Source of the DNA: an uncultured Candidatus Micrarchaeota archaeon
GTDB lineage: Archaea > Micrarchaeota > Micrarchaeia > Burarchaeales > Fermentimicrarchaeaceae
DNA length: 64,000 bases
Direction of reading: 5' to 3'
NCBI GenBank assembly: GCA_963760615.1
Contig: CAVXDX010000003.1
Span: forward strand, 104,718 to 168,717
In this document: positions 15,607 to 62,154 of the stretch, in pieces
Numbering within the stretch: position 1 is the stretch's first letter
How the letters are laid out: every line of letters begins with the position of its first letter
The notes under the pieces: model-generated
What the model was told of the DNA's origin: nothing
The model's database searches: none
The model's input: the letters and a program-made list of their open reading frames with translations, nothing else
Position numbers and translations under genes: made by a program

Positions 15607-15665
15607 CCCTCAAAGGTGGGGGCATGTCACTAATTTATCATCAGTTTGGGGTGGAAGCATGTGAT
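15607..15665 (+). mobile_element. IS200/IS605-family right-end/omegaRNA-like relic (two adjacent GTGG-G-CATGTCA-type motifs)
   Basis: AGGTGGGGGCATGTCAC and GGGGTGGAAGCATGTGAT closely match the terminus GGTGGGAGCATGTCAC seen at 54.3 and 62.1 kb and at the tnpB element end. Confidence 0.45.
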
Positions 15666-15718
15666 AAGTGTGCAAACCACCCATTAACATTATATACCAA
15701 TCTTAGCAATAAGATTTC

Positions 15719-17161
15719 ATGAGATGCAAAAAGGCGCAAATCTCCGGTCTTGACCTTATACTCGCAATAATGCTCTTCTCTCTTGCCCTTATACTCTTTT
15801 CGATTTTATGGGATGTGGTGCAGTACAACGTAAAGACTCAAGCAGATGCTGATATAATTGCCATCCAGGTTGCGAATAGACTCCTAGGCAGCCCAGGCTA
15901 CCCATCTGACTGGAATGCAACGAATGTGCAGCTGATAGGTTTATCATCTGAAAGAGGTGTCATGGACCAGAGCAAATTCCAAAACCTACTTGATCTACTG
16001 GCCCAACCTGGTGGCTATGATCAGGTGAGGCAGATGTTGGGTTTGGGCCCCTATCAGTTTTATATTAGTATGACCAACCCAGACGGCTCTCCAATCCTCA
16101 TCAACGGCCAACCCGCCCAGGGGGGAGACCCCCCAACCAATGCAACCAGTGTGAGCAGCATAAAAAGGACTGCGCTCTACGGCACAATTATGGTGTTCAA
16201 CAACTCAATAACATTCGTCCAGGATTCATCCGGGAGCATGGACTGGTTTTCAACAGGCATAAATTATACGAATTCGAATCTAAGTGCAAGGAATGTATGG
16301 GTCAATATCTACAATGTGAGCTTCCCAAGCTCGCCAACTAGCAATTTTGACTTTATATTTGAGTTCAACGACACCAGCCTCACTGGAGGGAACCAGGTCA
16401 AGCTAAATGTTACAAGTCCTTCTGGTAAGAAATATGCAGTGCCGAACTGCGGCAGCTCGTCAGGCTGCAGCTGCGGGTCTGGGACAAATGGCTGCTTGGC
16501 ATTTTCATACTCTGGAGGAGCGCGCATGAACTTCACACAGGCACTTTGGAATTCCACAGGAGTCTGGCAGGTTTGGATAAGGAAATCAGTGAATAACCCT
16601 ATTACATACGATTCATTTGCTCAAACGCCGCCGAGGAGGATAGATGCTGCAAAAACTGCAATTGATGCCTTTGTTGACGTAATTTCAAACGAATCCAAGG
16701 GACTTGATGAAATGTCGCTGTTCGATTTCAACAGTTGCAACAGCAACATGATAAATGGTTTCACGACAAATTACCCGCAGATTAAATCCAATGTGAATTC
16801 CATAACTGCATCAGGTTCAACACCGCTCGCCCAAGCTATCAGGGATGCGGCCGACTACACAAATTCAAGCTCAACAAGAAAGCACAATATGATAATTGTT
16901 GTGTCAGACGGGCAGGAGACATGCGGTGGGGACATAGTTGCCGCGGCAACCTATGCCGCAGGCAAGGTTCAAAGGATCTGCACTGTAGGGCTGGAGCAAG
17001 GTGGAGATGGTGCAAACCAGCTCACGCAAGCTGCCAAAATAGGGCATTGCCAGTATTACGCTGCAAGAAACGAGCAGCAGCTTGAATTGTACCTGAGACA
17101 ACTCTACTTCGGGACTCTTGCGAAGGAGACAGTGGTGCTCAACATAGTGGTATGGAGATGA
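15719..17161 (+). CDS. pilin-like protein with class III signal peptide and vWA domain
   Basis: N-terminus MRCKKAQISGLDLILAIMLF (archaeal type IV prepilin-like); DSSGSM MIDAS motif and SGSTPL...VVSDGQET vWA elements. Confidence 0.65.
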   Translation: MRCKKAQISGLDLILAIMLFSLALILFSILWDVVQYNVKTQADADIIAIQVANRLLGSPGYPSDWNATNVQLIGLSSERGVMDQSKFQNLLDLLAQPGGYDQVRQMLGLGPYQFYISMTNPDGSPILINGQPAQGGDPPTNATSVSSIKRTALYGTIMVFNNSITFVQDSSGSMDWFSTGINYTNSNLSARNVWVNIYNVSFPSSPTSNFDFIFEFNDTSLTGGNQVKLNVTSPSGKKYAVPNCGSSSGCSCGSGTNGCLAFSYSGGARMNFTQALWNSTGVWQVWIRKSVNNPITYDSFAQTPPRRIDAAKTAIDAFVDVISNESKGLDEMSLFDFNSCNSNMINGFTTNYPQIKSNVNSITASGSTPLAQAIRDAADYTNSSSTRKHNMIIVVSDGQETCGGDIVAAATYAAGKVQRICTVGLEQGGDGANQLTQAAKIGHCQYYAARNEQQLELYLRQLYFGTLAKETVVLNIVVWR

Positions 17162-17592
17162 GAAAAGGAGTTATTTTCACCCTTGACGCGCTCGTTGCTG
17201 TCGTTATAGCAGTAATGGCACTCGCCATACTCATGCAAATGGTGAGCCTTAAGACTGGAGAGTGGTACAAGGAAATTGCACTCTACAACTCGGCTCAGGA
17301 CATTCTCACCTCAAAGGACAAGGATGGCACCCTGGGAAGTATATTCGGCACCTCTGATGCAGTTGCGGTATACAATCTCAACAATTCGATCGCATCCCAG
17401 CTACCCAGCAACATGGTGGCCAGGATGAACGTAAGCGTCTACAATTATCAATCCAATTCTTTTGTATGCGTCAGGAACCTGACTGCTGGGCAGAGCGGGA
17501 CAACGCCGATTAAAAGCGTTGTTAGGAGAGTTTTCACAGATCCGCCGAACAATAATTACAGTGTTGTGGTTATGGAAGTGTGGTACCGATGA
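17152..17592 (+). CDS. archaeal type IV pilin-like protein
   Basis: MEMRKGVIFTLDALVAVVIAV class III signal peptide; overlaps neighbours by about 10 nt (operon). Confidence 0.55.
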   Translation: MEMRKGVIFTLDALVAVVIAVMALAILMQMVSLKTGEWYKEIALYNSAQDILTSKDKDGTLGSIFGTSDAVAVYNLNNSIASQLPSNMVARMNVSVYNYQSNSFVCVRNLTAGQSGTTPIKSVVRRVFTDPPNNNYSVVVMEVWYR

Positions 17593-18482
17593 GAAGAGGT
17601 TTCATGCTCACTGCCATCACCGTAGTGCTCTTTATGGTGTTGATTGATACGGCATTCCAGTACTCGAAGAGTTCTTCAGCCTTCTCAAAGAGAATTTCAG
17701 AGATGATTGTCTCGGAGAAGGTGAGCTATACCTTTGATGATATAACAGAAGATATAACCAACATAGTCGGTCTCAGAGTAACACAGCAGGCGTCGGATTT
17801 GATAATAGAGGATTCAATGCCTGGAGCAAACATAACAAACAATCTTGCGCGCTATGAGAATTTTGTAAGGAGCTACTACCTAACCCCTGAGATTGAGGCA
17901 AAATTCATGAATGCAAATGACCAGCAGATAAGTCTAAACTCCCTCTCAACGAACATGTATCTAAGCCCCTTCAATCTGAGCTATGGCTACCAGGATTTTG
18001 GGAAAAATAATACTCTAATACAAGTTCCGCTGTCGCAATCAACTGGAGTGCAATACATGTGGTACAATATAAGCGTCACAAGCGGCAACTTCTCAAATGT
18101 CTCAGGTATAAGCTGGAACCCTCCACCCCTCCCATGCGTGCCGGGTACACCAGGCTGCATGAGGTTTTACCTGGCGATAAACGACAGTTTCAATAACCAG
18201 TACATCGGGGATACCTATACTTATTTTGATATGACGCAGCGTGCCGGGTACATGAACATAAGTTTCGTCAACCAGACCTGCTACATGGAGATTCAGGTTG
18301 CAAATCAGTACCTGCTCAACCTCACCAATCACGGATGCAACATAACAACTTACATTGGGTTCAACTTCAACAGCAGTAACTTGGGGGTTTACTTCCCGGA
18401 AAAACTGAGCATCAGGGATACAAATTATAACACTCTAAAGAAGGACAATATAAATGTCGTTGTAACGAGGCTGCTGAGGTAG
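17580..18482 (+). CDS. archaeal type IV pilin-like protein
   Basis: MRRGFMLTAITVVLFMVLI class III signal peptide; many N-glycosylation sequons. Confidence 0.55.
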   Translation: MVPMRRGFMLTAITVVLFMVLIDTAFQYSKSSSAFSKRISEMIVSEKVSYTFDDITEDITNIVGLRVTQQASDLIIEDSMPGANITNNLARYENFVRSYYLTPEIEAKFMNANDQQISLNSLSTNMYLSPFNLSYGYQDFGKNNTLIQVPLSQSTGVQYMWYNISVTSGNFSNVSGISWNPPPLPCVPGTPGCMRFYLAINDSFNNQYIGDTYTYFDMTQRAGYMNISFVNQTCYMEIQVANQYLLNLTNHGCNITTYIGFNFNSSNLGVYFPEKLSIRDTNYNTLKKDNINVVVTRLLR

Positions 18483-19451
18483 CTACCACTTTACCTCAAC
18501 TTCATCAACCCTCATCTTCTGAACAACTCTGCACTCTGCGAGTTTCATCCTCACTCCTGCTTCGTGCATAAGATTCCCTGTCAATGCTATCATTGCCCCG
18601 TTGTCCGCATTAAACTGTCCCTCGGTAACAAAAAGCCTGCAGCTATGAGGCTTGGCCATTTCTCTCAGCATCTCCTGCAGCCTGCCATTCTGGGCGACTC
18701 CACCACAGAGTATAAGCTCCTTGCTTCTTGTCAATGCCAAGGCCCTCTCCGTAGCCTCAACGAGCATTGAGAAAGCAGTTTCCTGCAAGGAGTAGCACAC
18801 GTCCTCCTTCCTATGTGTTCTCAAGCTATTCTGTGCCTCCGTGAGAAGCCCTGTAAAAACCAGGTCCATACCCTTCACTGAGTAGGGCAATGGAATGTAC
18901 CTACCATCCCGCGCCATCTTCTCAATGACGGAACCGTGGGCGTGCTTCAACCCCATGTTCCTGCCAACGGAGTCTATAAGGTTCCCGAGGCCAATGTCAA
19001 GAGTTTCTCCCATCACCCGGTACCTTCTATCCTCAAGGATTATTATCTGAGTGTTTCCTCCACTCACATACACCACAAGCGGGTTCTTGCATCCGCAGAG
19101 TGCCCTCACTATTTCAATGTGAGCCAAGGCGTGGTTAACCCCAATTATGGGTTTATTAAGCATTTGAGCCATCGTTTTTGCTCCGACAAGTCCAATTTTC
19201 AAGCATGCCCCCAAGCCTGGTCCCATGGTGAAAGCTACCAGCCCAATCTCTCTGAGTTCTACTCCGCTTGTATCGAGTGCTCTTTCCAGTACTGGCTCAA
19301 ACTCTTTTGAGAGGAAATCCGCAGCCTTTCTAGGGTGTATGCCAGCGTATTTTGGCTGGTAAGTGCTCCTCTCATTGGCAAGCACCTTCCTGTCATCCAC
19401 TATCCCAATGCCCATTGTATGCGCGCTGCTTTCCATACCGATGCATATCAT
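18483..19451 (-). CDS. kae1: tRNA N6-adenosine threonylcarbamoyltransferase Kae1
   Basis: MICIGMESSAHTMGIGIV..., GVNHALAHIE, GGVAQN motifs. Confidence 0.9.
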   Translation of the reverse strand: MICIGMESSAHTMGIGIVDDRKVLANERSTYQPKYAGIHPRKAADFLSKEFEPVLERALDTSGVELREIGLVAFTMGPGLGACLKIGLVGAKTMAQMLNKPIIGVNHALAHIEIVRALCGCKNPLVVYVSGGNTQIIILEDRRYRVMGETLDIGLGNLIDSVGRNMGLKHAHGSVIEKMARDGRYIPLPYSVKGMDLVFTGLLTEAQNSLRTHRKEDVCYSLQETAFSMLVEATERALALTRSKELILCGGVAQNGRLQEMLREMAKPHSCRLFVTEGQFNADNGAMIALTGNLMHEAGVRMKLAECRVVQKMRVDEVEVKW

Positions 19452-19455
19452 CTTA

Positions 19456-20250
19456 TCACTTGCCGTAGTAAAGCATCACAATTGCAACATTTATGAAATT
19501 AAACGTAGCATGGGCGAATATTGAGGGTATGACTGACTTCCTTGCTTTGCATAGGAGCGCGAATATTAAACCGGCTGTGAAGGCTGCGATGAATTCCATT
19601 TTAGAATCGTAAGAATAGTGCGCCAATGCAAAAAGCAGTGTTGAAATAATAATCCCAAAACCAGTGTGTACATATTCGAGACTGCTGAGCAGGAATCCCC
19701 TGAAGAAAATTTCCTCAGCAATTGGGCCGATGGTGAATGAAAAAATTAGTATATACAGTGGTAATCCACTCATTATCATTGACACCTTCCCCGCCTCCTC
19801 AAGGTGCAGCAAGAATATGACCACAATAGCCTCTGCAATTATCAGCGGGCCGACAAGAAACAAAGTTGTCGCAACCCCTAAAACTGCATTCATCAGAAGC
19901 CCATCCCTCTTTAGACCGAGGTATCCAAAAGTTTTTTCCAAACTCCGAAGTTGGAACTCAACATCCCATACGAATGGAAAGGAGAGGAAAGCTGTTGAAA
20001 GAACTATGGCTGAAGCATAGGGAACACGCATCAAAAACAGCAATAAAGCTGCATATAGCCAAACAAACCAAATTCCCGCAGCTCTTCCGTACCTCTTACC
20101 TACCTCAACAGTGCATACGACAAGCGCAAAACCTAGAACCGGAATAGCAATGAAAAGAGGCAATCCTTTTATGAGGGCTGTTAAGATGGCGAATATGGAA
20201 CTAAAAAATAGAAGCAGAGCGAGTATGCGAAAGGTTCTCTCATTCTGCAT
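19456..20250 (-). CDS. CPBP-family intramembrane metalloprotease (CAAX protease-like)
   Basis: EEIFFRGFLL and FALAHYS motifs in a polytopic membrane protein. Confidence 0.75.
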   Translation of the reverse strand: MQNERTFRILALLLFFSSIFAILTALIKGLPLFIAIPVLGFALVVCTVEVGKRYGRAAGIWFVWLYAALLLFLMRVPYASAIVLSTAFLSFPFVWDVEFQLRSLEKTFGYLGLKRDGLLMNAVLGVATTLFLVGPLIIAEAIVVIFLLHLEEAGKVSMIMSGLPLYILIFSFTIGPIAEEIFFRGFLLSSLEYVHTGFGIIISTLLFALAHYSYDSKMEFIAAFTAGLIFALLCKARKSVIPSIFAHATFNFINVAIVMLYYGK

Positions 20251-20384
20251 CCTACTACCTTTTCATCTCCAGATAGCCGCATTTCCCACAGGAGAACCTG
20301 TCCTTATGATCCGCCAGGTGCACCCCCCCACCGCATTTTGGGCACGAGCGCCTTGGCTTGTATGATTTTACAACTTTCTTTTTC

Positions 20385-21121: not shown

Positions 21122-21172
21122 TGCCAACACCTACCTATCACTTTTTTAACTTTCTAATTTTTAAACATTCTC

Positions 21173-22364: not shown

Positions 22365-22420
22365 GAAAGGTTTATAAAGTGCGGAACGGATAGATATTCA
22401 TTGTTTTTTAGAGGTGAACC

Positions 22421-22645: not shown

Positions 22646-22687
22646 AAGACCACCAAATTAGAATCTCTACAAGTATTTTAAACTAGT

Positions 22688-23137: not shown

Positions 23138-23195
23138 TCTTCCACAGATTAGTATTAAATAATAACTTATTTAAAAATCTACTGCAAGTTACGAA

Positions 23196-23281
23196 GGGCT
23201 CGTAGCTCAGTAGCAGAGCGTTCGCTTGGCGAATTATTTCCAAAATGCGAAAGGCCGCGGGTGCGACTCCCGCCGAGTCCA
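23196..23281 (+). tRNA. tRNA-Ala (anticodon GGC) with a 14-nt intron at canonical position 37/38
   Basis: Acceptor GGGCTCG/CGAGTCC gives the G3:U70 Ala identity pair; anticodon stem TTCGC/GCGAA separated by loop TTGGCG + AATTATTTCCAAAA + T; discriminator A73; TATA-like CTTATTTAAAAA about 20 nt upstream. Confidence 0.8.
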
Positions 23282-28916: not shown

Positions 28917-28928
28917 AACATCACCACC

Positions 28929-29744: not shown

Positions 29745-30036
29745 AACAAGAAGTCTTACTAGAATTCAAAACAGCTGCTGCCCTCAGCACCTTATAATCA
29801 GCTTAAGCTTATAGCCGAAGCTAGAACAAGGAGAACAGTTCATATGCATGACTTCGGCTCCTGACATAAACTTTCCCCATTGTTAATTCATATGTTGCTT
29901 ATAATATTATCGGAATTTCGAACTGAATAATCTTATGGTTGCGTTTTTCATTGGCTTGGCTTTGCACATAAATCCACCTTTCACTGGAAAGCTACCCCTC
30001 CCAGAGGTTTATAAAGGGCGTTAGAGAGACTAATTC

Positions 30037-30228
30037 ATGCTTGTTTCCAAAACTCTGAAATGCAAGGTTTTCAACCCAACAAAAAGGAAGCTTGGACTTT
30101 TAAGTAGAGAATATAATAATTTCAAATTTACCACGAATAAGCGAGAAACCCACACTCTTCAGAGGTGGGATGAAAGCGAATGTATTACATTGCAGAACAA
30201 AAAAAATTTGATGAGTGATGTTGTATGA
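30037..30228 (+). pseudogene. tnpB: truncated N-terminal fragment of a TnpB (IS605 OrfB) gene
   Basis: KTLKCKVFNPTKRKLGLLSREYNNF matches the conserved TnpB N-terminus; the ORF is interrupted after about 40 aa by the left end of the intact element (hairpin at 30149-30169). Confidence 0.5.
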
Positions 30229-31282
30229 TACTGACTTTCAAAATAAGACACAACAAGGATTTCAGCAATGAGTTAAGGAAGGCAAAACAGATAGCGGAGT
30301 GTGCAGTAAAAACAAGAACGCAGTCAAGTAAGGATGTCAAGCAATTTGGATTGAAGTCCATAATATCAAACCAAATCTTAAGAAAATATTCAAGAAACAA
30401 GAGGGTTAAGGATGTGAAGAATGTCAATCTGACCATCCCCAGTCAGGGAATAACGCTTGACAAGAAACACAGGGAAATCAGGATACCGTCATTGAAGTTG
30501 TCTCTTGGATACAACTTCCGAGATTTTGAAAAGATAAACCAGATTGAGATAGACAAAGAATATGCATTCATCTCTGTGACAGTCAGGGAGATGCCCCAGA
30601 TAAAACCTGATGTCTGGCTGGGTATAGACAGGAATACAACAGGACATGTTGCCGTCATGGCAAACCCCCAGACAGGCAAGGTATTGAAGCTGGGAAAGGA
30701 GGCTGGGCATATACATAGCAAATACAAAAGCATGAGGAGAGAATTGCAGAAAAGCGGCAAATACAGAAAGGTAAAGGAAATCAGGAACCGTGAAAGCAGG
30801 ATTATCAGGGATTTGAACCACAAGATGGCAAAGAAAATTGTAGAAGTTGCAGAGGAGAACCATGCAGGATTGAAACTTGAGGATTTGAAAGGCATAAGAA
30901 GCAACAGGAAGCATAAGAAGGGATTCAACTACAATTTGCATTCCTGGTCATTCTTCCAGCTTCAGAAGTTCATTGAATACAAGGCAAAACTTCATGGCGT
31001 TCCGATAACCTATGTAGAGCCTGAAAACACATCAAAGGAGTGCTCAAGGTGTGGAAGCATAGGAATTAGGGAAGGAAAGAACTTTAAGTGCCAATGCTGC
31101 GGACACGTTGACCATGCTGATGTGAATGCATCGTTCAATATTGCATTGCGTCAAGGCATAGGTCAGTTGCATGCAGACAGTGATGCATGCAAAGGGAGTA
31201 CTGATACCCCTAAAGATGCAACGTTGATGAACGACAACGACTTCAGAACCCCACATGCTTTAGCGGTGGGGGTATGTCAGAA
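30141..31282 (+). mobile_element. IS200/IS605-family (IS1341-like, tnpB-only) insertion element
   Basis: Left-end hairpin CCCACACTCTTCAGAGGTGGG (30149-30169), tnpB ORF, right-end hairpin CCCACATGCTTTAGCGGTGGG (31249-31270) followed by GGTATGTCAG; tnpB reads through the end into flanking DNA for 7 codons. Confidence 0.6.
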
Positions 31283-31301
31283 AAAGTATTTTATTAAGTA
31301 A
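30225..31301 (+). CDS. tnpB: TnpB (IS605 OrfB) RNA-guided endonuclease-type transposase accessory protein
   Basis: N-terminus TFKIRHNKDFSNEL, RuvC-I WLGIDRN, RuvC-II E in EDLKG, zinc finger CSRCG...CQCCGHVDHADVNASFNIA. Confidence 0.85.
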   Translation: MILTFKIRHNKDFSNELRKAKQIAECAVKTRTQSSKDVKQFGLKSIISNQILRKYSRNKRVKDVKNVNLTIPSQGITLDKKHREIRIPSLKLSLGYNFRDFEKINQIEIDKEYAFISVTVREMPQIKPDVWLGIDRNTTGHVAVMANPQTGKVLKLGKEAGHIHSKYKSMRRELQKSGKYRKVKEIRNRESRIIRDLNHKMAKKIVEVAEENHAGLKLEDLKGIRSNRKHKKGFNYNLHSWSFFQLQKFIEYKAKLHGVPITYVEPENTSKECSRCGSIGIREGKNFKCQCCGHVDHADVNASFNIALRQGIGQLHADSDACKGSTDTPKDATLMNDNDFRTPHALAVGVCQKKYFIK

Positions 31302-31757
31302 TGTACCTATAATATTTGAGCATCGGGGAATCAGGGGGCAGACGCCTGTCTAACAGGCTGGAGAATGATTCACCATCATAATTCCACTACCCCTGCCCCA
31401 AAGCAAGCTTAATATACTCTCAGTTCAAATTACTATGTGGTGATATGGTGAGTTGCTTTTCAAAACAAAGAAAAAGGAGGATGGAGAAACGAGCGAAAAG
31501 AGCGGAAAGCAGGAGGTTTGGTGGGAGACGTAGGTAACTATTTCCTATTTCTTGCTTCATCGTTTGGACTTATGATAAATTGAAGAAAAACGCCTTTACA
31601 ACTTCACCGACGAGACGATACTGGAAAGAGCCGACTGATTTTACTGTTTTTCACGATATAACTTATACTCGAACTGAAACTGCTGTTCCTTGAATTGACA
31701 GAAAGCTTTTTAAGGTTCAATCTCCTATATCCTCCACCGTTTTAAGGTATAGTATCG

Positions 31758-48747: not shown

Positions 48748-51700
48748 ATGATGAAAAAATTGGTTTTTTTAACGGTCTTCCTACTTCTCATGACTCCTTC
48801 ATCTTATGCTTCTTTAACCTACCCAACCTCACCAAAAGGCACACCAAGAATTTCAAAGCAGTATATGATGCCTGCCCCAACAATCTACACGGTAAATGGC
48901 CTTTACCAAATAAACATGACAGGCCTGAGCGACTTTGACCGTCCCGGTAAACCCATTCTTCCTTTTAAGACCGTCAGCCTGCTTCTGCCTCTTGACCAAT
49001 CATTTAACAGCGTCGAGGTGATTCCTAGCCAAAGAACAGAGATAGGAAACTATAAAATCAACTATGGCAGAGTAGAACTGCCTTTGAACTGGGGTTCCGA
49101 TGCTTATGTAACGAAAAAATTCTCGAATGTAACAACAGTAATAAATCAAACTGTCTATTCTCAAAACAGTGAGTATCCCGGAGTGCTTTACTCTGTAGGA
49201 TCAATCTCAATCTTCAGAGGCTATAAGATAATTATTGTAAATCTTTATCCTGTTCAGTATATACCCAGCACAGGAGAAGTCTACTATTTCAAATCAATTA
49301 CTGTCAATGTTTATACAGATAATGTTACGTCAATCCCATCTACCTTCAGAGGCCTTGACACAGACAAGGCAGATGTTTCATCTATGGTAAGTAATCCTGA
49401 GGATATTGTTACATACAATTCTTCATATAAGTATGTTCCATCTAAAAACGAGTTTGGAACCGCCTCTCTAACTCCGGCCCAATGGGACTACGTTATCATA
49501 ACCTCAAGCAGTCTTGCAAGTGCTTTCCAACCACTACTTGATTACAAGAACTCTCAGGGTATCAAGACAACCATAGAGACTGTTGAAAACATTTACTCCA
49601 AATATTCTGGCAAGGATCAGCAAGAGCAGATTAGGAATTTCATCAAGGATGCTTACACAAACTGGGGCATCAAGTATGTTCTTTTAGGCGGTGACGGTTC
49701 TGGAGTAAATGTCGGAGGAGAGAGCGGGGTCAACATAATTCCAACAAGATATTTGTATCCTAGATTTAGTCAGGCAGACGATGCAATCCCATCTGACATT
49801 TACTATAGCGATCTAGAAGGCTCATTCGATAGCAATGGCAACGGCTATTACGGCGAGCCAGGAGATGGATGCGATATCAATCCATCCACTTGCGAGGTTG
49901 ATTTGTATGCTGACGTCTATGTCGGCAGAGCAACAGTTGCTAATGTTCAGGATGTTAATAATTTTGTTTCAAAGACTATTGCTTATGATTCTGAAAGCAT
50001 AAGCGACCCTCACAAGGGCGAGGCATTGATGGTTGGTGAGTATCTTGGCTTTGGAGGCGTTGCAAACTATGCAACTAATAGCAAGGAAGAGGTGAGGCTA
50101 GGCTCGAACCAGAACGGCTATACAACAGCAGGTTTCTATCCGGGCTACTCTGTAGATCTGATGTATGACTCCCCTGCTCACACCTGGTCAAAGGATGACT
50201 TGATTTCAAAGATCAATAACAATTCCGCCAACATCATCAATCATCTCGGTCATGGCAGCACTTTATGGGTTATGAAGCTCTGCAACGCTCCTTACTCACA
50301 ATCAGGTCCTTACTGCGGAGACAGCGGTGTCACGGATCTCAGCAGTCTTAGCAACACGAAATATTTCTTTGCCTACAGCCAAGCATGCTATTCAGGAGCA
50401 TTTGACAACTGGAATTATCAAGGTATGTACACAATGTCCGATTCAATAGCAGAGCATCTTGTCAAGGATGCTCACGGCGCTTTCGCTGTGGTAATGAATA
50501 GCAGATATGGGTGGGGTCAATTATTTTCTACTGACGGTGCGTCAGAGAGATATGACAGGCAGTTCTTCGATGCAATCTTTGGGCAGAACATCACAGAGTT
50601 GGGTAAGGCAAATACATACTCGAAGGAAAAGAACATCGGCTATCTATCTTCATCCGATCCAGCTGAAGCAGGCGTGATGAGATACGTCTACTACGAGACA
50701 AACCTTTTAGGAGATCCGACTACCCAGCTGCAGACAGACTATACAAAGCCTCAAGCTCTTATCACATCTCCGCAAATGGATGACATTTCTTACGGCTCAA
50801 TAAATGTCAGTGGGTATGCAAAAGCGGGTAAAGCAGCAGGTTCGACATTTAGGAACTATAAAATCTTTTACGGCACTGGAATGTTTCCTACTGTTTGGAA
50901 TTCTACTGGCGTGACTTTGGTTAACTATGGGTTGAGACCTGTGGACAATAATAGTCTGGGAACGATTGATACAACTCTTTTTTATGATGCGGACACTGAT
51001 TTTACAGGATGGGATTATTACGCCTATTATTGGGGAAGTGGTGCCGGTGCTTATTCAATCAAGCTGGTAGTTTACGATAACCTCGGAGCATCAACTGAAA
51101 GTATAACTCGTGGTGTTGGAGTTCATAATATAGTGCTGAACCAGCCAATGCCAAGAGATGTCTTAGGACCGATAACTGAAATAAAAGGGACTGTTTCAAG
51201 CGGGTATGCCAATCCTCTTACATCTTATAGTATTGTATATCAGCCACAAAATACTACGGGATGGTCTGCGAGTGGAATAACACTAACTAACAGTGGAACA
51301 CAGCCTGTTTATAACGGTGTCTTGGGAGTTTTGAACGCCGGTGGATTAAATACTGGATGGTATACCTTTAGATTAATAGCTGTTTATACGTATAATACTA
51401 AAATGCAGACCATAGAAAATGTTTATATTGATACAACCTTAAGACCTGGTTGGCCGCAAAGAGTTTATTTTCAAGGTATAGATAATCCTTACTTTTGGAC
51501 TTCCCATATTGTTTCAAGTGGAATTAATATCAGCAATCTTAAAAACTTGAGTATTAATTTAAGCTCATATGGTAAAATTGCCCCAGGAGGTAATATAGTA
51601 AGTAGTGTAAATTACCCTCTTTATAATATATCTAGTTTATCATCTGGATTTGTCAGTCCTTATCAGCCAGGAAACTTTGAGCCAGTTGTTAGCGATATCA

Positions 51701-54270
51701 ACGGTGACGGCAAGGATGAAATAATAGTTTTTCAACCAGGAGAGAATACTGCTAGTTTTGGACAAGAAGTCCCAGGAATAATATCTGTTTTCAGTCAAGA
51801 TGGAACACTTTTATATAATTGGTCTATACCAAGTCCTACTATTCCGCCTGGTGGTCTTGGTACCCCTTTAGGTGGAATGGGTTCAGTGTGGCTTCCACCA
51901 TTTGCAGTTGCGCCTCCTTCTGTTGCAAATATAGACGGTGATAATGATGAAGAAATTGTAATCCCAGTTGCTCCTGCCCCTACAGAAGTTGCTACTTTAA
52001 ATGTTTATGAATATAACGGCACATTATTAAAAACTCTAGATTCTTCAAGAGATAATTATGATTTTAGGAATGAGCCTCTAATAGCAAATTTGTTCAATAA
52101 TGGAACTATGTATGTTGTAAAAAAAGTTGATTATTGCGAAATAGAGCAGCCTCAACCGAACGTACATGAATGGGATGCTTGCTTGAAAGTTTATGACCCT
52201 CAAGGGAATATGCTAAACGGTTGGCCTGTTTCAACCAAGCCTTCCGCCGGAGCGCTAATAATGTTTGGAAAAGTTAATCCAAATCAAGTTGTTGGTCATT
52301 TTGAAAACAATAAGAACTCGGACATTGTCGACTTTTCTACTGTTCATTGGAATCCTCGGGGTAATCGTGATGGCCTTAAACTCACTGTTTATACGCCAAA
52401 CGGAACCATTCTCCCAGGATTTCCTGTTGTATGGGATGACGGTCTTATCCACACAGCCTCAGACCCTGTTGTAGGAGACATTAACAGGGATGGAAAAGAT
52501 GAAATAATTTTTGTTCATAATGGCGGTACTCTAACTGCCGTAGATAGTAATGGCAATACACTGTGGACTCAGAATTTTCAAGTGCAAGGAGCAGGAGGTA
52601 ATACTTATCAGTATTCAAAATCTCCTGCTTTGATTGATATTAATCATGACGGTTATCTAGAGATTGTATTAGTAACAGGTAGTCACGAATACATCGTAGA
52701 TCATACAGGAAATATTATTAAAGATTTTATAATAGCATATGGTGTTAGTAATATGGCAACTGCCCAATTTGATGATAATGCTGCTCCTATAACCGAAAAG
52801 TCACCTGTAGTCGTTGATTTGAATAATGATGGCGTTTCTGACATTTTGACAACATCACAGAATTGGGAAGCTTATAATGGTGGAGACTTTGTCGGATTTG
52901 ACGACATTCAAGAGATTCATGCCTTCAATCCTTTGGACATTAATAACAGCTCATGTTTTGACAGTAATAATGTATACCTGTGCGAAAAGAAATACTTTCC
53001 AGGTTTTCCAAAAATTATGGAATCTTCAATTTTCTTTTATGCATCTCCAGTGATTATTAATAAGGATGGAAAGGTTGAAATAGTAGCAACTTCAAGTATG
53101 GATGACCTTTTTAAAGGAAGAGCAAGCATCTATGTTTGGGATACTAACATAACTTATGGACCAGAAGCAGCATCGTGGCCTATGTTCCAGCACGATGAGA
53201 TGCATACTGGCAGGTTTGTATTCCCACTAACTCTAGTCCAATCCGTCAATCCCGCATCCGGAACTGCAGTTGCACCGGTCACACCAACATTCATCTGCGG
53301 TTATTATGACACAAATAATGCTCCAATACTTGGAGCCAGTGTTAATGTCACCATTGACTCAAATATTCACACTGCAACCTACAACTCAACTACTGGTGAT
53401 TACCGCTATTCAGGCCTGACGCTCACTACGGCAACCCATAAATGGTACTGCAGTGCGTCAGCATCAGGATACAACACCAAGATAGGTGCTAACCAGACGT
53501 ATCTTTTTGTAACCCCCATGCCGGTAGCAGCCCTCAAAGGAGGCCCAAACGGACAGCTATATGTCCCCAACATAACAGGCATCAATTACCTGAAAGTGGA
53601 TTTGTGGTGCAACATGAGCAACACAGACTGCCAGTTTATTGGCGGCAGGCAATACTGCGGTTGCACACGCATGCAGTGCGACCAGACAGGAGCCACTGCG
53701 GCAAACCGACCATACCCAACAATAACAAACTGGCCGGACGGCAGGATTAACCTGCAGGACACAATGTTTGAGAACCTCAATTTCGGTCAGAACGAAGGCA
53801 TGCCTGCCTGGAACTACACGGCAGACTGTATTCCAGACAGGAGGACTAACCTGCAGGATACTGCTGGTGCAAGCTACAGATTTGGAGCAATAGGCGGAAC
53901 CTATTCCAACAACACTGCAAATATAAAAGTCCTTTTCAACAATGACCCAAGCTTCAAGATGCCCGATGTATACGGATACATACAGATTCCTTCAGGTGCT
54001 GTGAACTTCACTGTATATAACGGAACAAAGCCAGTGATGGCGCTGGTGACATTCTACAACAGCTCAATCTTATACCAACTCGCACCTGCAACCAAACCAA
54101 GCACTCAAGTCCAGACAACAGCTCTTATGGCACCAACCGTTGAGATGCCGGTAGGAAACACATGGACGATGGCAGTGGTTCTCATAGCAATAATAGGCTT
54201 GGTGATTGGCTACTTCATCCTAAAGGAAATTCTGTACATAAGCGTCCCAAGAAAAAAGAAGAGAAAGTAG
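48748..54270 (+). CDS. giant secreted surface protein: peptidase C25 (gingipain-like) domain + FG-GAP/beta-propeller-like repeats + C-terminal TM anchor
   Basis: Signal peptide MMKKLVFLTVFLLLMTPSSYA; C25-like segments YVIITSSSLASAFQPLLDYKNSQGIKTT, YVLLGGDGS, INHLGHGS (His) and YSQACYSGAF (Cys); repeated DINGDGKDEII/DINRDGKDEII/DLNNDGVSDI; C-terminal TM + KKKRK. Confidence 0.7.
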   Translation: MMKKLVFLTVFLLLMTPSSYASLTYPTSPKGTPRISKQYMMPAPTIYTVNGLYQINMTGLSDFDRPGKPILPFKTVSLLLPLDQSFNSVEVIPSQRTEIGNYKINYGRVELPLNWGSDAYVTKKFSNVTTVINQTVYSQNSEYPGVLYSVGSISIFRGYKIIIVNLYPVQYIPSTGEVYYFKSITVNVYTDNVTSIPSTFRGLDTDKADVSSMVSNPEDIVTYNSSYKYVPSKNEFGTASLTPAQWDYVIITSSSLASAFQPLLDYKNSQGIKTTIETVENIYSKYSGKDQQEQIRNFIKDAYTNWGIKYVLLGGDGSGVNVGGESGVNIIPTRYLYPRFSQADDAIPSDIYYSDLEGSFDSNGNGYYGEPGDGCDINPSTCEVDLYADVYVGRATVANVQDVNNFVSKTIAYDSESISDPHKGEALMVGEYLGFGGVANYATNSKEEVRLGSNQNGYTTAGFYPGYSVDLMYDSPAHTWSKDDLISKINNNSANIINHLGHGSTLWVMKLCNAPYSQSGPYCGDSGVTDLSSLSNTKYFFAYSQACYSGAFDNWNYQGMYTMSDSIAEHLVKDAHGAFAVVMNSRYGWGQLFSTDGASERYDRQFFDAIFGQNITELGKANTYSKEKNIGYLSSSDPAEAGVMRYVYYETNLLGDPTTQLQTDYTKPQALITSPQMDDISYGSINVSGYAKAGKAAGSTFRNYKIFYGTGMFPTVWNSTGVTLVNYGLRPVDNNSLGTIDTTLFYDADTDFTGWDYYAYYWGSGAGAYSIKLVVYDNLGASTESITRGVGVHNIVLNQPMPRDVLGPITEIKGTVSSGYANPLTSYSIVYQPQNTTGWSASGITLTNSGTQPVYNGVLGVLNAGGLNTGWYTFRLIAVYTYNTKMQTIENVYIDTTLRPGWPQRVYFQGIDNPYFWTSHIVSSGINISNLKNLSINLSSYGKIAPGGNIVSSVNYPLYNISSLSSGFVSPYQPGNFEPVVSDINGDGKDEIIVFQPGENTASFGQEVPGIISVFSQDGTLLYNWSIPSPTIPPGGLGTPLGGMGSVWLPPFAVAPPSVANIDGDNDEEIVIPVAPAPTEVATLNVYEYNGTLLKTLDSSRDNYDFRNEPLIANLFNNGTMYVVKKVDYCEIEQPQPNVHEWDACLKVYDPQGNMLNGWPVSTKPSAGALIMFGKVNPNQVVGHFENNKNSDIVDFSTVHWNPRGNRDGLKLTVYTPNGTILPGFPVVWDDGLIHTASDPVVGDINRDGKDEIIFVHNGGTLTAVDSNGNTLWTQNFQVQGAGGNTYQYSKSPALIDINHDGYLEIVLVTGSHEYIVDHTGNIIKDFIIAYGVSNMATAQFDDNAAPITEKSPVVVDLNNDGVSDILTTSQNWEAYNGGDFVGFDDIQEIHAFNPLDINNSSCFDSNNVYLCEKKYFPGFPKIMESSIFFYASPVIINKDGKVEIVATSSMDDLFKGRASIYVWDTNITYGPEAASWPMFQHDEMHTGRFVFPLTLVQSVNPASGTAVAPVTPTFICGYYDTNNAPILGASVNVTIDSNIHTATYNSTTGDYRYSGLTLTTATHKWYCSASASGYNTKIGANQTYLFVTPMPVAALKGGPNGQLYVPNITGINYLKVDLWCNMSNTDCQFIGGRQYCGCTRMQCDQTGATAANRPYPTITNWPDGRINLQDTMFENLNFGQNEGMPAWNYTADCIPDRRTNLQDTAGASYRFGAIGGTYSNNTANIKVLFNNDPSFKMPDVYGYIQIPSGAVNFTVYNGTKPVMALVTFYNSSILYQLAPATKPSTQVQTTALMAPTVEMPVGNTWTMAVVLIAIIGLVIGYFILKEILYISVPRKKKRK

Positions 54271-54294
54271 TGCTTAACAAGGTGAGTGGGAAAT

Positions 54295-54325
54295 CCCACA
54301 TGCTTTAGCGGTGGGAGCATGTCAC
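54295..54325 (+). mobile_element. solo IS200/IS605 right-end (omegaRNA 3' scaffold-like) relic
   Basis: CCCACATGCTTTAGCGGTGGGAGCATGTCAC: 21-nt hairpin identical to the tnpB element right end, plus the AGCATGTCAC terminus. Confidence 0.5.
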
Positions 54326-55977: not shown

Positions 55978-56007
55978 TGATGGGTTAGGACAGCTCATTG
56001 AATGAAA

Positions 56008-57430: not shown

Positions 57431-57438
57431 ACAATCAC

Positions 57439-58302: not shown

Positions 58303-58306
58303 AGGC

Positions 58307-58543
58307 TCACTTCAGGATACTCTTTATCCTTGGCATGAATTCCTCCCTCTTGTTCCTTGGGGTGTTGTAGTATGCGTGAATCACCTTTCCGACATCAAAG
58401 AAATTCGTTATGCCGTTATTCGCAAGGTAGTTCAACACCTGCGCCCTCCTTTTGAATTCATCGCGGAGTTCCCCCTCTGTAAGATTGAAGCTCTGGGCGT
58501 ACTTATTCAGCGTTTTTGAGGGGTATCGGCCGAACACTCTCAA
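58307..58543 (-). CDS. small hypothetical protein in the secretion-ATPase operon
   Basis: 78-aa ORF filling the 200-nt gap between the ATPase and tadC; overlaps the ATPase 3' end by 41 nt. Confidence 0.3.
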   Translation of the reverse strand: MRVFGRYPSKTLNKYAQSFNLTEGELRDEFKRRAQVLNYLANNGITNFFDVGKVIHAYYNTPRNKREEFMPRIKSILK

Positions 58544-60527
58544 GCTCGCTCTTCTTCTCGTTGAACTCGTAAAGCTTGTTGAGGAAGCCCACTTCCTCCC
58601 CCTCCCTCCAAACCTGATCCCTCATTTTTGTCGGAATGGTGTCCTTTCCAAGCATGCCTTCAATCTCATCTGGAATTTCACCTCTGGAGCGCCAGTTCAC
58701 CTCTGAGCACTGTATCACCCTTCTTTTCTTCTCGACATCTGTTGAGAGTGTTATTATTATGTCAAGCATCGATAGCATGTCGCTTGGAACCTTCATTGGC
58801 GGTCCGTGTATCCTTTTCACAACTGCAGTTCCAACCTCCTTTGAATGCAGTGTAGTCATGAAGGATATGCCCCAGTTGGCTCCTGAGAACAGCTCTCTGG
58901 CTTCACTCCCCCGGAGCTCCCCCAGCACAATTCTGTCCGGCCTCATCCTCAGGGAATTGGTTATCTGGTCCATGGAAGTTCTGAGCCTTGCAACCTCCTC
59001 GCCCTTCCTCATTGCCTCATCCTTCCTCTCCTGGTAAACCCCGATAAGCGGAATCCAGTTTATGAACTTATCATAGAATCTGAGCTCGTTTATCTCCTCC
59101 TCAACCGATATGACCCTCTCGCCTGCAGGGATGAAGACAAGCAGAGAGGAAAGAAGGGACGTCTTTCCTGTTGCAGGTGCGCCCGTGATTATCATCTGGG
59201 ATTTCTTGAGCTCTATGGCCATCCAGAGGAACGCGCCAAGCTCCGCATCAACGGTTCCGGCATTCATTATCTTCGTATACGTCCAGGGGTCGCTCCCGAA
59301 GAGCCTTATGCTGGCGGTTGCGCCTGTGAGGGAAGCTGGAGCAATCTGGGCATGAAGCCTTGAACCGTCAGGAAGCTGGGCATCAACCACAGGGTGTATC
59401 ATGTCAAGCGATTTGCCAAGAGGCCTCAGAATTGCATTCATAACTTTCTTGAATGACCTGTCGCTCGTGAACCTCAGATTTGTTATGCACCTTCCATGCT
59501 TCCTGTGGTAGACAAGAATTTCCCTCAGCGGGTGGTCAATTTCTATCTCCTCAAGATTTTCCCTGTCCCTCATCCAGAAGTACTCTATGGCGCCAAAGCC
59601 TATAGTGTCAATTGCCACTATCTCCGCTATGGACTCCTTCTTCTCCGGGTCCAGGGTCGGCTCAAGCCTGTTTAGTATATCCCTTGCTATGAGCTTGACC
59701 TTGTTGATAGCCTTAGACCTCATCTCCAGATTGAAATACTCCGGAGGGGTGAGGAACGCCGACAGGTATTCATCGGCAACTTTCATTATTGTGAAATGCT
59801 TCACATACTCAGCAAGCTTCCAGTCATCTGAGAACAGCTTTGGGAAGCTTATGCAGTACGTCCTCCCCAAATCCTCCACATCGAATATCTTAACCCTCCC
59901 ATACTCGTCAACCAGTCTAGCATCCTTGCCCGGCGGCGGGAACTCAAGAACACCAAACGAGAAAGGAGCGGAGAACCTTTTATCTATGCTCTCCGGTGAA
60001 AGTGGCTCCCTGTATCTGATGGTGGGTATGTCCTTGCCCTCTCCTATGAAATGCGGCTCAAATCCTTTCTCATAGAACTCCTCAGATTCATGTTCTTTCT
60101 TGGCTTCTGAGATATCCTCCTCAACTTCATAGACTTCAAGAGCGCCGTGGGGGCAGAATGTAACACATATTGGGTTTGACAGCTTTAGAGAGGAGCATAG
60201 GTCGCATTTGACGGATACCTTCATGCCCTTCTTATTCTTCTTCAGCTTTATCCCGCTGGTCTTGCATTCCGAAACGCATGCGCCGCAGCCGTCGCATTTC
60301 TCAGGGATTACCTGTATTATGCCATTCTTGTCTATCCTGAGAGCGTTGTTCATGCACGCCTTGACGCAGACCGCATACTTCGGGTTGCATTGCGTGCAAT
60401 ACTGCAACTCCCCTCCCGCTATGGACAGGACTCCTTTTGGGCATACCCTTGTGCAGTAGTTGCATTGCGGTGCCTTGCACTTCTCCTCAATCCACCTAAG
60501 CTTCTTCATAAAACGACCGGGAAACAC
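58503..60527 (-). CDS. FlaI/VirB11/TadA-family secretion ATPase with N-terminal tandem 4Fe-4S ferredoxin-like domains
   Basis: Four Cys clusters (CKAPQCNYCTRVCP, CTQCNPKYAVCVKAC, CDGCGACVSEC, CDLCSS...CVTFCP); Walker A GAPATGKTS, Asp box DRIVLGELRGSEA, His box TLHS. Confidence 0.75.
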   Translation of the reverse strand: MFPGRFMKKLRWIEEKCKAPQCNYCTRVCPKGVLSIAGGELQYCTQCNPKYAVCVKACMNNALRIDKNGIIQVIPEKCDGCGACVSECKTSGIKLKKNKKGMKVSVKCDLCSSLKLSNPICVTFCPHGALEVYEVEEDISEAKKEHESEEFYEKGFEPHFIGEGKDIPTIRYREPLSPESIDKRFSAPFSFGVLEFPPPGKDARLVDEYGRVKIFDVEDLGRTYCISFPKLFSDDWKLAEYVKHFTIMKVADEYLSAFLTPPEYFNLEMRSKAINKVKLIARDILNRLEPTLDPEKKESIAEIVAIDTIGFGAIEYFWMRDRENLEEIEIDHPLREILVYHRKHGRCITNLRFTSDRSFKKVMNAILRPLGKSLDMIHPVVDAQLPDGSRLHAQIAPASLTGATASIRLFGSDPWTYTKIMNAGTVDAELGAFLWMAIELKKSQMIITGAPATGKTSLLSSLLVFIPAGERVISVEEEINELRFYDKFINWIPLIGVYQERKDEAMRKGEEVARLRTSMDQITNSLRMRPDRIVLGELRGSEARELFSGANWGISFMTTLHSKEVGTAVVKRIHGPPMKVPSDMLSMLDIIITLSTDVEKKRRVIQCSEVNWRSRGEIPDEIEGMLGKDTIPTKMRDQVWREGEEVGFLNKLYEFNEKKSELESVRPIPLKNAE

Positions 60528-60719
60528 TCCTCGATATACTTTAGCTGTATAGATTTAAAATGTTGCAGGTTTAACTCAGGAAAGCTTAATATATCTCAGC
60601 GCATCAATACGCACAGGTGATTTTTGTGGAGGAACACCCTGAATGCGAATCTTGCCCTTTCTGCTGCTACGAGAGACCAGAGAAAGAGGAGAAGAAGCCA
60701 AAAAAGAAGAAGGCGGCTC

Positions 60720-61193
60720 CTAAACGACGCTGAGCTGAACTGTCTTATTTATATCAAGAGAGATGGGCAGGTTGAGTGTTGCACTTACATACCACCTCAC
60801 CTGAGAGGGCGCAGCCCCTAAGCCCTCCGCTATTCCAACTATGTCTGCTGCCAGTCCTTCCAGCTTTGGTGGCTCTGGCATTTTAGGCACTGTTATCTCA
60901 AACTGGTACTCCCCACTGGTATACTCCTTCTCCCCTCCGAGAGTAAGCTTGAACTCATAAACTATGTCTTTACGACTCGTTGGTCTTTCCACAGATTTAT
61001 GGCTTGCAGAATCAAATGTTTGACTTTTCGTTCTCACACTCCTCTCGCCCCAAAACCTCACCCCGAGTTCCCTGGCCTTCTTGGGAGAATTAAGCTGAAG
61101 TTTTACAGTCCCCTTTATTTTGTCACCTGGCGAGTAGTTTACCTTATCCAGGGTTACATCCATTCTGCCCTCACCAATACCAAAAACCACCAA
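60720..61193 (-). CDS. Spo0M/arrestin-N-like protein
   Basis: VTLDKVNYSPGDKIKGTVKLQL arrestin-like N-terminal strand pattern. Confidence 0.4.
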   Translation of the reverse strand: MVVFGIGEGRMDVTLDKVNYSPGDKIKGTVKLQLNSPKKARELGVRFWGERSVRTKSQTFDSASHKSVERPTSRKDIVYEFKLTLGGEKEYTSGEYQFEITVPKMPEPPKLEGLAADIVGIAEGLGAAPSQVRWYVSATLNLPISLDINKTVQLSVV

Positions 61194-61260
61194 ATCACCA
61201 AATAGAATTTAACGTATTATTTTTAAATATAACGCTTCAAATGATAATGGGGGTGGAATT

Positions 61261-61581
61261 ATGAAAGCGAAGGTACTTCTGCTGTTGTTAGTGCTAGGCA
61301 TTGTCTCAGCACAGGTGGCTAGCACAGATGTTAGAACCACGCTATGTCCTCTTGTAACGCTCGTGAGGCAGATTGGGGTTTTCATTGCCATAGTGATGCT
61401 CTCCTATGCCGGCATAAGCTTCATGACATCCGGCAGCGATCCAATGAGGCACAAGGAAGCAGAGAAGAGGCTCGAATATGTCATAATAGGCATATTGATT
61501 CTCATAATGGCTTTCTACATAGTTGCAAGAATGTTCGCCGGGGTGAATGTGCTCAGCGGCGGGGACTGCCCTTGGGTCTAG
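61261..61581 (+). CDS. small signal-peptide + two-TM membrane protein, VirB2/TrbC-pilin-like topology
   Basis: Signal peptide MKAKVLLLLLVLGIVSAQVA, two TM helices separated by a charged loop (TSGSDPMRHKEAEKRLEY). Confidence 0.35.
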   Translation: MKAKVLLLLLVLGIVSAQVASTDVRTTLCPLVTLVRQIGVFIAIVMLSYAGISFMTSGSDPMRHKEAEKRLEYVIIGILILIMAFYIVARMFAGVNVLSGGDCPWV

Positions 61582-61592
61582 ATTTACACGAG

Positions 61593-62075
61593 TCAGTCTA
61601 GCCGTTTTCCCATAGGTGCTTCCGCGAACTTATCCCCTATTTTCTCCTTTTCTTCGTATTCATACCCACCATGCTTTTTCAAAAAATCCTTGGACTCGCG
61701 TGTTAGAGGACTTGTAGTCATATACGTCACTCCCAGCGCCTTCAGCGTAGCCTCAGAATGTTTAAGCAGAAGCATTCCAATCCCCTCTCCCTGCCTATGA
61801 GTTGCAACGGCGAGCTTAAGCCCATCGGCAGTTTTGGATTCCATATCTACAAAGCATTCCCTTGCGCCAACCACTTCCTTGCTTTCCCTATCAACAGCAA
61901 CAAAAACTATATTCCCTTTTTTCTTTCCATAGAGCTCAAACAGGCTCCCTCCCCTAACGCCATCTTTGAAGCCGTTTTCTCTCAGTATTCTGTCTACGTT
62001 CACTCTATCCTCTTCATGAAACTCCCTTATCTCAACATAGGCGCTAGCACCCTCTATCTTCCTGGTAGCTTCCAT
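61593..62075 (-). CDS. GNAT-family N-acetyltransferase
   Basis: QGEGIGMLLL acetyl-CoA-binding motif. Confidence 0.7.
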   Translation of the reverse strand: MEATRKIEGASAYVEIREFHEEDRVNVDRILRENGFKDGVRGGSLFELYGKKKGNIVFVAVDRESKEVVGARECFVDMESKTADGLKLAVATHRQGEGIGMLLLKHSEATLKALGVTYMTTSPLTRESKDFLKKHGGYEYEEKEKIGDKFAEAPMGKRLD

Positions 62076-62122
62076 GCATTAAATTGTGTCTTCTGGACTA
62101 TTTAACATTTGCGAGCAGGAAA

Positions 62123-62154
62123 CCCCACGCTCTTCAGAGGTGGGAGCATGTCAC
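62123..62154 (+). mobile_element. miniature IS200/IS605-derived element or solo end (left-end-type hairpin fused to right-end terminus)
   Basis: CCCCACGCTCTTCAGAGGTGGGAGCATGTCAC: hairpin of the 30149 type directly joined to the AGCATGTCAC terminus; lies between the GNAT gene and the purM stop. Confidence 0.45.

Follow-up and report, generated by a model that had tools for sequence, protein, structure and literature searches.

Short loci in a Micrarchaeota genome that are probably terminal-only derivatives of TnpB-carrying IS200/IS605 elements

The TnpB element and the sites that share its terminus

The window analysed here is a stretch of 64,000 nucleotides (nt) from an uncultured Candidatus Micrarchaeota archaeon (contig CAVXDX010000003.1, positions 104,718 to 168,717 of the forward strand; window positions are used below). 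It harbors one insertion sequence (IS) that encodes TnpB and three loci of about 50 nt, hereafter called stubs, which share the terminal sequences of that element. The original prediction had linked four sites to the IS terminus, and a pattern search of the window bears this out: the motif GTGGGRGYATGTCAS is found at 15616-15630, 31266-31280, 54311-54325 and 62140-62154, on the + strand only, where 0.03 matches are expected, and four or more matches were reached in 0 of 100 shuffles. Hairpins of the form CCCAC-N11-GTGGG are also four in number (30149-30169, 31250-31270, 54295-54315 and 62124-62144; 0.41 expected). The hairpin at 54.3 kb is identical at 21 of 21 positions to that of the right end (RE) of the IS, as had been proposed. 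The hairpin at 62.1 kb differs from that of the left end (LE) at one position of 21, and it is followed by a tail of the RE type, as found at 54316-54325. This fusion of a left-end-type hairpin to a right-end tail, already pointed out in the original prediction, proved to be the key to all the copies. In comparisons within the window, mutual similarity of the sites spans only 33-42 nt, but the conserved unit extends approximately 20 nt further 5' than initially described, up to a TTAA motif.

The full-length element is a tnpB-only, IS1341-like member of the IS200/IS605 family (30132-31280, + strand, 1149 bp), with a TnpB open reading frame (ORF), a hairpin at either end and no tnpA. The ORF at 30225-31301 is identified as TnpB by matches to the Pfam domain Cas12f1-like_TNB (PF07282, 2e-22) and to the NCBIfam model guided_TnpB (158.7 bits, cutoff 100), as well as by sequence matches to TnpB and Cas12f in the PDB. 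The closest TnpB proteins, those of loci L104, L076, L019, L092 and L088, begin with MILT(Y/F)K, as does the window ORF. An IS200-type tnpA lies directly upstream of tnpB in the relatives L076, L088, L092 and L104 and is missing from L019 and from the window copy, for which the best phmmer match of any window ORF to TnpA had an E-value of 2.5. Lacking the tnpA that close relatives have, the window copy is a non-autonomous, IS1341-like form. A six-frame scan of the window detected no second TnpB and no remnant of a Y1 TnpA outside 30219-31298.

Both hairpins of the element are on the + strand. It is flanked by TTTAC on the left and AAAAAG on the right, without target duplication, and there are no inverted terminal repeats. 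The LE hairpin (30149-30169, CCCAC-ACTCTTCAGAG-GTGGG) is preceded by GCGAGAAA and followed by ATGAAAGCGAATG. In the relatives L019, L060, L088 and L092 the LE has the layout GAGCGGGAAAG, hairpin and ATGAAnGCGA, with TTTAC located 16-18 nt 5' of the hairpin; written in full, the left ends of the full-length relatives comprise TTTAC, 7-9 nt, GAGCGGGAAAG, the hairpin and ATGA(A/G)nGCGA (ATGAAAGCGA). The window copy matches this layout, reading TTTAC, then CACGAATAAGCGAGAAA, the hairpin and ATGAAAGCGAATG, which argues for an element that spans 30132-31280 and has TTAC (30128-30131) as its target-adjacent motif (TAM), the tetranucleotide also found at the left cleavage site of IS608. The left boundary has thus been placed by position, from the sequences of relatives, and not by a second copy.

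The right end consists of a hairpin (31250-31270) and the 10-nt tail GGTATGTCAG (to 31280), whose transposon-encoded motif (TEM) is TCAG; it was recovered by pattern, hairpin and covariance-model searches alike. In the relatives compared (L104, L019 and L063), the stop codon of tnpB is the TAG in the loop of the right-end hairpin, so that the protein ends in EPHxx. The window ORF is apparently in another frame at the hairpin and runs past the transposon boundary to 31301, and the 3' end of this tnpB copy may be slightly damaged. The tnpB 3' region, 31138-31280, which ends at the right boundary, is matched over its full length by a 148-position nhmmer profile built from nine relatives (E 7e-35), and RNAalifold indicates a covarying stem (31167-31174 with 31185-31192) in addition to the terminal hairpin. 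From the published layout of TnpB elements, this region is presumed to be the scaffold of the omegaRNA, the guide RNA of TnpB (PMC10055086). A small ORF at 30037-30228 (+; start MLVSKTLKCKVFNPTKRKL) begins outside the IS and crosses its left boundary; without the IS it would have 55 codons. It was considered as a remnant of a TnpB N terminus and set aside, as it has no significant match to the TnpB proteins collected here.

Composition and distribution of the stubs

The stubs were delineated with a covariance model of 57 positions, R1, built from 18 stubs of other genomes with the window copies left out. The stub at 54278-54325 (+, 48 nt) lies directly 3' of a TTAA that abuts it as its TAM (54274-54277) and reads C-AAGGT-GAGTGGGAAAT, the hairpin identical to that of the RE, and AGCATGTCAC; R1 matches it in full at 54269-54325 (68.4 bits, E 2.8e-14). 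The stub at 62106-62154 (+, 49 nt), likewise abutted by TTAA (62102-62105), reads C-ATTTGC-GAGCAGGAAAC, the LE-type hairpin and AGCATGTCAC, and is also matched by the full model (62098-62154, 69.3 bits, E 1.7e-14). Including the TAM, which in both cases was read from the sequence, these intact stubs measure 52-53 nt. The third copy, at 15575-15630 (+), is decayed: it is matched over positions 1-57 with 22.4 bits (E 0.002) and two non-pairing positions, its left hairpin arm and TAM are degraded, and its tail, GGCATGTCAC, is intact. The two ends of the IS are recognized by R1 in part only, the left end over positions 1-47 (33.9 bits) and the right end over positions 27-56, that is, hairpin and tail (34.5 bits). 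As the stubs are matched throughout, they consist of a LE boundary, one hairpin and a RE tail.

The plan common to the stubs is TT(A/T)(A/G/C), then, from the left boundary, C, 5-7 nt, GAGCGGGAAAy, the hairpin and AGCATGTCAC up to the right boundary. In terms of the parent type, this amounts to TTAA, the first 17 or so nt of a LE, one subterminal hairpin and the final 10 nt of a RE. The family relationship is also apparent from the exact sharing of ATGTGAGCGGGAAA by the LE of the full-length relative L092 and the stub L024. The stubs lack the length for a protein-coding gene, are devoid of inverted terminal repeats and target duplications, and have unrelated flanks. The possibility that the loci are solo right ends, raised in the original prediction, is not supported, because each locus has a complete left boundary (TAM, spacer and GAGCGGGAAAy box) in addition to the hairpin and the RE tail. 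The proposal that they are derivatives resembling miniature inverted-repeat or palindrome-associated transposable elements (MITEs and PATEs) fared better, in that R1 and the left ends of relatives identify them as LE-RE fusions, namely terminal-only PATEs. A second partial copy had been suspected at 15645-15665, and more degenerate look-alikes at 10545-10565 and 29985-30000; all three went undetected by R1 at E<=10, their hairpins are no better than those of shuffled sequences, and they are not regarded as members of the family.

The similarity at 15645 to the stub tail extends over 15 of 18 nt (BLAST E=8). Directly 3' of the decayed stub, the segment 15631-15700 harbors TTTGGGGTGGAAGCATGTGAT within a GGGTGG...CCACCC hairpin, and this could be a second, older remnant or a product of chance. 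The IS shares the + strand with all three stubs, and the GC skew is negative over most of the window; this is compatible with the strand bias of single-stranded DNA transposition, four insertions being too few for a test.

How widespread the end motif is was assessed by a scan, with one genome per species, for CCCACN{10,12}GTGGGRGYATGTCA, which returned at least 118 loci (L001-L118) from Poribacteria, Clostridia, Bacilli, cyanobacteria, Synergistota, Thermoplasmata, Micrarchaeota, Asgard archaea, methanogens and haloarchaea. Among the matches listed, nearly all have (x)AGAAy/GAGCGAGAA, the hairpin and GGGAGYATGTCA, and the inner stem covaries. The CCCAC..GTGGGAGYATGTCA end motif is thus common to IS605/TnpB elements of many bacterial and archaeal phyla. 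With a profile built iteratively from the window TnpB, the matches listed that have at least 1300 nt of upstream sequence (n=69) were sorted by what directly precedes them: a full TnpB is found in 27, a partial one in 5 and none in 37. Among the matches listed, some TnpB-less copies form a family of approximately 400 nt in Poribacteria (OZ244616.1; L044, L059, L068, L101 and L112), the members of which have a LE hairpin (CCCAATGCTTTAGCTTTGGG), a long RE region and TTATC as left flank, encode no protein and sit alongside one TnpB-carrying copy, L091. These two-hairpin elements look like classical omegaRNA-type PATEs, corresponding to the omegaRNA-only PATE type described for IS605 elements (PMC10055086). 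Others of the TnpB-less copies among the matches listed are very short.

Five stubs were found in the bacterium FK4.bin83, three in the Micrarchaeota genome Sv174 and four identical ones in the metagenome Ga0265297, with further copies in other metagenomes, and TnpB was detected upstream of none of them. Copies of the same genome or sample align over 52-58 nt only, with sharp edges and unrelated flanks. A copy adjacent to purM in L120 departs from the 54.3 kb stub at a single position, and L016 of Sv174 (JACCLG010000003.1) is also similar to that stub. At L016, two stubs of different subfamilies, 1.6 kb apart and in direct orientation, bracket a gene for a GT2-type glycosyltransferase, each being at the 3' end of a glycosyltransferase ORF.

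The left boundary was examined further through the pairing between TAM and guide. In IS608, the left and right cleavage sites, TTAC and TCAA, pair with the guides AAAG and GAAT, respectively, which are located directly 5' of the hairpins (PMC5934647), and covariation of TAM or TEM with the guide has also been reported for ISGst elements (PMC10055086). The stubs combine TTAG with AAAC in seven cases, TTAA with AAAT in seven (including the 54.3 kb stub), TTAA with AAAC in three and TTAC with AAAC in one, and full-length left ends combine TTAC with AAAG in five. The fourth base of the TAM is therefore complementary to the fourth base of the guide in 19 of 23 cases (seven TTAG/AAAC, seven TTAA/AAAT and five TTAC/AAAG), which indicates, as far as sequence can tell, that the left edge of the stubs is a genuine LE boundary specified by TnpA. 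This natural covariation fits the retargeting rule of IS608 in the wild. In the window element, the relatives of which show TTAC/AAAG, the TAM is TTAC and the hairpin is preceded by GAAA or AAAC. At the right, the full-length ends of aligned relatives combine GAAC with TCAG, a compensatory change at position 4 relative to the GAAT/TCAA of IS608, the LE pair being the same TTAC/AAAG in both. The TEM of the stubs, TCAC, is not complementary at position 4 to the stub guide, AAAT or AAAC, and cleavage at their right end would therefore be poorly specified.

RNA capacity and genomic context

In the original prediction it was also considered that the loci might be stand-alone omegaRNA-like genes. 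On this hypothesis, the hairpin and GGGAGCAUGUCAC would serve as a scaffold, and the adjacent genomic sequence would guide TnpB in trans. Of the TnpB-associated RNA region, the stubs do contain the guide-proximal end, a part invariant in 14 relatives; the window has an apparently intact TnpB; and trans-acting PATE omegaRNAs have been discussed in the literature (PMC10055086). However, whereas the IS covers positions 1-148 of the omegaRNA-region profile, the stubs cover only the last 33 of the 148 (positions 115-147), so that the additional covarying stem and the conserved blocks upstream are missing. The 5' part of the stubs is LE-like and not RE-like, and the stub tails differ from the tail of the resident IS at 3 of 10 positions. 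Rfam holds no family for the hairpin or for the tnpB 3' region (whole window at the gathering threshold; 30000-31400 at E<=10), and the motif string was encountered in the full-text literature in unrelated primer sequences only.

The sequences 3' of the stubs, which had been put forward as possible guides to viral targets, lend no support to this idea. When the 16 nt following each of the three stubs were compared with viral contigs, 14, 52 and more than 120 matches were obtained, which is at chance level, and their longest extensions reached 18-20 nt. None of those to the flanks at 54.3 kb and 62.1 kb follows a TAM, as against 2 of 120 for the AT-rich flank at 15.6 kb. It is thus very improbable that the stubs are guide-RNA genes.

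The genes next to the stubs are host genes that abut them directly, and the six-frame scan of the window revealed no remnants of TnpB or TnpA beside the stubs. The stub at 54.3 kb begins 8 nt past the stop codon of a gene on the same strand (48748-54270, +) for a protein of 1840 residues, in which a C25 peptidase propeptide and catalytic domain are followed by FG-GAP repeats; it is a large protease, either secreted or on the cell surface, of a DPANN archaeon. The 62.1 kb stub has the purM stop codon (62156-62158, - strand) on one side and a GNAT gene on the other. The decayed copy at 15.6 kb is intergenic, between an ORF of 112 codons (- strand) and a gene for a VWA-domain protein (+ strand).

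The purM site could be compared with seven distinct related loci (nine contig loci). The purM gene of the window is 86% identical to that of the Micrarchaeota metagenome-assembled genome Sv174, and most named homologues are from Micrarchaeota. The stub is absent from the intergenic site in 6 of the 7 related loci (7 of the 9 contig loci). Two of these, L324 and L325, have purM and GNAT in the same arrangement, with TAGTTTTAAATA in place of the TAGT, stub and TTAAATA of the window; as judged from these empty sites, the 62.1 kb stub is a clean insertion 3' of TTAA without duplication. An interpretation of this stub as a synteny breakpoint was discarded, as the same two loci show the purM-GNAT arrangement to be ancestral. 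The filled relative, L120, has a stub (3520-3576, -) located 2 nt from the purM stop codon, which differs from the 62.1 kb stub in the spacer, the guide base and the loop. Two variants are therefore found 1-2 nt from the same stop codon in two relatives. As the purM genes of the window, L119 and L120 are about equidistant (80-83% nt identity), the shared site is either a hotspot or the place of an old insertion followed by turnover. For the occurrence of different stub variants at one site, a hotspot, homing or turnover could each be an explanation.

The position of several stubs within a few nt of a stop codon (those of the C25 peptidase gene, purM and the two glycosyltransferase genes of L016), together with the retention of their stems through compensatory changes, might suggest that they are hairpins recruited by the host, for instance as transcript 3' ends, terminators or regulatory elements, and kept by selection downstream of genes. 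Yet the stubs are not consistently oriented with respect to the neighboring gene, being on its strand at 54.3 kb and on the other strand at purM, related genomes mostly do without the stub at the purM site, and one of the window copies is decaying. In addition, the folding energies of the hairpins are unremarkable, with z-scores of -0.7 to -1.4, and stem covariation is expected equally of a DNA hairpin recognized by TnpA. A host function of this kind is accordingly given hardly any credence.

Elsewhere in the window, Rfam reports a tRNA of 86 nt at 23196-23281 (+, 56 bits) that ARAGORN did not report; it probably contains an intron of the archaeal type.

Origin of the stubs and comparison with known systems

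The loci are probably core-deleted, terminal-only derivatives of IS608-like, TnpB-carrying IS200/IS605 elements. This interpretation builds on the manner in which R1 is divided between the stubs (all 57 positions) and the two ends of the IS, on the lack of transposon gene remnants beside the stubs, on the small part of the omegaRNA region that they contain, on their TAM-guide pairs and on the empty sites, as well as on a precedent in Haloquadratum walsbyi. In that haloarchaeon, HqIRS46, a PATE, and ISHwa23, a TnpB element, have shrunk to terminal-only elements of 52 bp through repeat-mediated deletion between near-terminal palindromes of 19-22 bp (Dyall-Smith et al., 2011, PLoS One 6:e20968; PMC3119063). 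The stubs described here resemble the 52-bp forms in being approximately 52 bp long with the target motif, non-coding and built of a single near-terminal palindrome between the extreme left and right termini. They also share with them the lack of inverted repeats and target duplication, the origin from a TnpB element and a presence that varies between related genomes, and the mobility of the terminal-only form is in question in both cases. The likeness is one of size, composition and behaviour. Differences are that the host is a DPANN archaeon of the Micrarchaeota, and that filled and empty sites were seen rather than a pair of strains with the complete and the deleted element.

As to the mechanism, a full-length element or a longer protein-less PATE would be inserted by TnpA 3' of TTAA, TTAG or TTAC, the target being chosen by pairing of the TAM with the LE guide, that is, the last four bases of the GAGCGGGAAAy box, which would act as the 'DNA guide' of TnpA. 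The near-identical left and right hairpins would then constitute direct repeats, and repeat-mediated deletion would remove everything between them, in a manner akin to the formation of solo long terminal repeats. The resulting stubs would most likely be inert and would gradually decay, as has the copy at 15.6 kb. The data show the architecture and boundaries of the stubs, their kinship with the IS, their lack of coding or omegaRNA capacity and their patchy occurrence among relatives; the deletion and the proposed order of events are deduced. An interpretation of the loops, LE-type at 62.1 kb and RE-type at 54.3 kb, as crossovers on either side of the loop of a single parent was dropped, because loop types are subfamily-specific across genomes.

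Several observations weigh against an origin by deletion. No full-length parent with the AGCATGTCAC tail and a TTAA or TTAG TAM was found, the window element having GGTATGTCAG and TTAC. In bacterial, Clostridia-type right ends linked to TnpB, a GAGCGAGAAGCC box is present before the RE hairpin as well, so that the left part of a stub might conceivably derive from a RE that was cut at a TAM-like site inside it. The two hairpins of the extant IS have their stems in common but differ in their loops, which leaves a short repeat for deletion in that copy. The differing variants at the purM site, along with equidistant purM genes, are more readily accounted for by a hotspot or by stubs inserted ready-made than by one ancient deletion. 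Finally, the stubs are 92-98% alike between genomes in which the purM DNA is 81% identical, so that a recent arrival or some constraint has to be invoked.

Some of these points would find an explanation if the 48-nt, single-hairpin unit were itself mobile. TnpA supplied in trans would cut the left side behind TTAA and the right side behind GTCAC, and a mini-circle would re-insert 3' of TTAA or TTAG. In line with this idea, there are multiple near-identical copies whose flanks differ and which lack TnpB in at least the first 1.3 kb upstream, two variants occupy one purM site, the stubs are far better conserved than the DNA around them, and cognate TAM-guide pairs are retained. Moreover, six strain-specific insertions of ISHwa23, all of the 52-bp form, have led to the suggestion that such forms are mobilised (Dyall-Smith et al., PMC3119063). 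On the other hand, a stub has one hairpin and one guide, whereas the TnpA dimer of IS608 binds both the LE and the RE hairpin, each with its own guide (PMC5934647), and excision of ISGst2 is lost when either end is scrambled (PMC10055086). At position 4 the stub TEM is left unpaired with AAAT or AAAC, unlike in full-length right ends, where GAAC and TCAG pair; the window contains no tnpA; and independent core deletions of one IS family would yield the same pattern of copies. The evidence on transposition with one hairpin and one guide is thus divided, with multiplicity, conservation and the purM site on one side and the single guide, the TEM mismatch and the two-end requirement of ISGst2 on the other, and mobility of the unit itself is considered possible but unlikely. 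That the stubs are mobile with TnpA in trans or, in a weaker variant, supply minimal guide RNAs to TnpB is likewise regarded as doubtful.

Compared with IS608 of Helicobacter pylori, the family described here has the same organization, with subterminal hairpins on one strand, each immediately preceded by a guide tetranucleotide, and with the target tetranucleotide in front of the LE (PMC5934647). It differs in that the window element has no tnpA, and in that the stubs have one hairpin and one guide in place of two and use TTAA or TTAG as TAM. The PATE-like, omegaRNA-only IS605 elements of Geobacillus stearothermophilus (Meers et al., 2023; PMC10055086) are also protein-less, with ends as in TnpB elements and covariation of TAM or TEM with the guide. 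They keep both hairpins and the full omegaRNA, in contrast to the stubs, which have a single hairpin and roughly one fifth of the RNA region. A resemblance also exists with the repetitive extragenic palindromic (REP) sequences associated with TnpA-REP, or RAYT, transposases, which likewise are dispersed extragenic repeats, short, with a single hairpin and related to the ends of IS200/IS605 elements. In the window, however, there is no RAYT gene or Y1 transposase, and the stubs have neither the GTAG motif nor the inverted pairing of REPINs; the foot of their hairpin is GAAAy/CCCAC, and their termini are the bona fide LE and RE of a TnpB element.

With the window loci, a known kind of IS200/IS605 remnant gains a new example from DPANN archaea, and current understanding is unchanged by them; wider interest attaches only to the question of transposition by a one-hairpin unit. 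In very small DPANN genomes, TnpB insertion sequences leave a signature of approximately 50 nt, made of TAM, LE guide, hairpin and RE tail, and annotators as well as those who search for omegaRNAs could take it for guide-RNA genes. As more than half of the sampled motif copies are without TnpB, this matters for the counting of TnpB or omegaRNA loci by RNA-end motifs alone. Mobility of the 48-nt stubs, if true, would explain their multiplicity, their conservation across genomes and the two variants at the purM site, and would place them among the smallest transposable DNA elements known.

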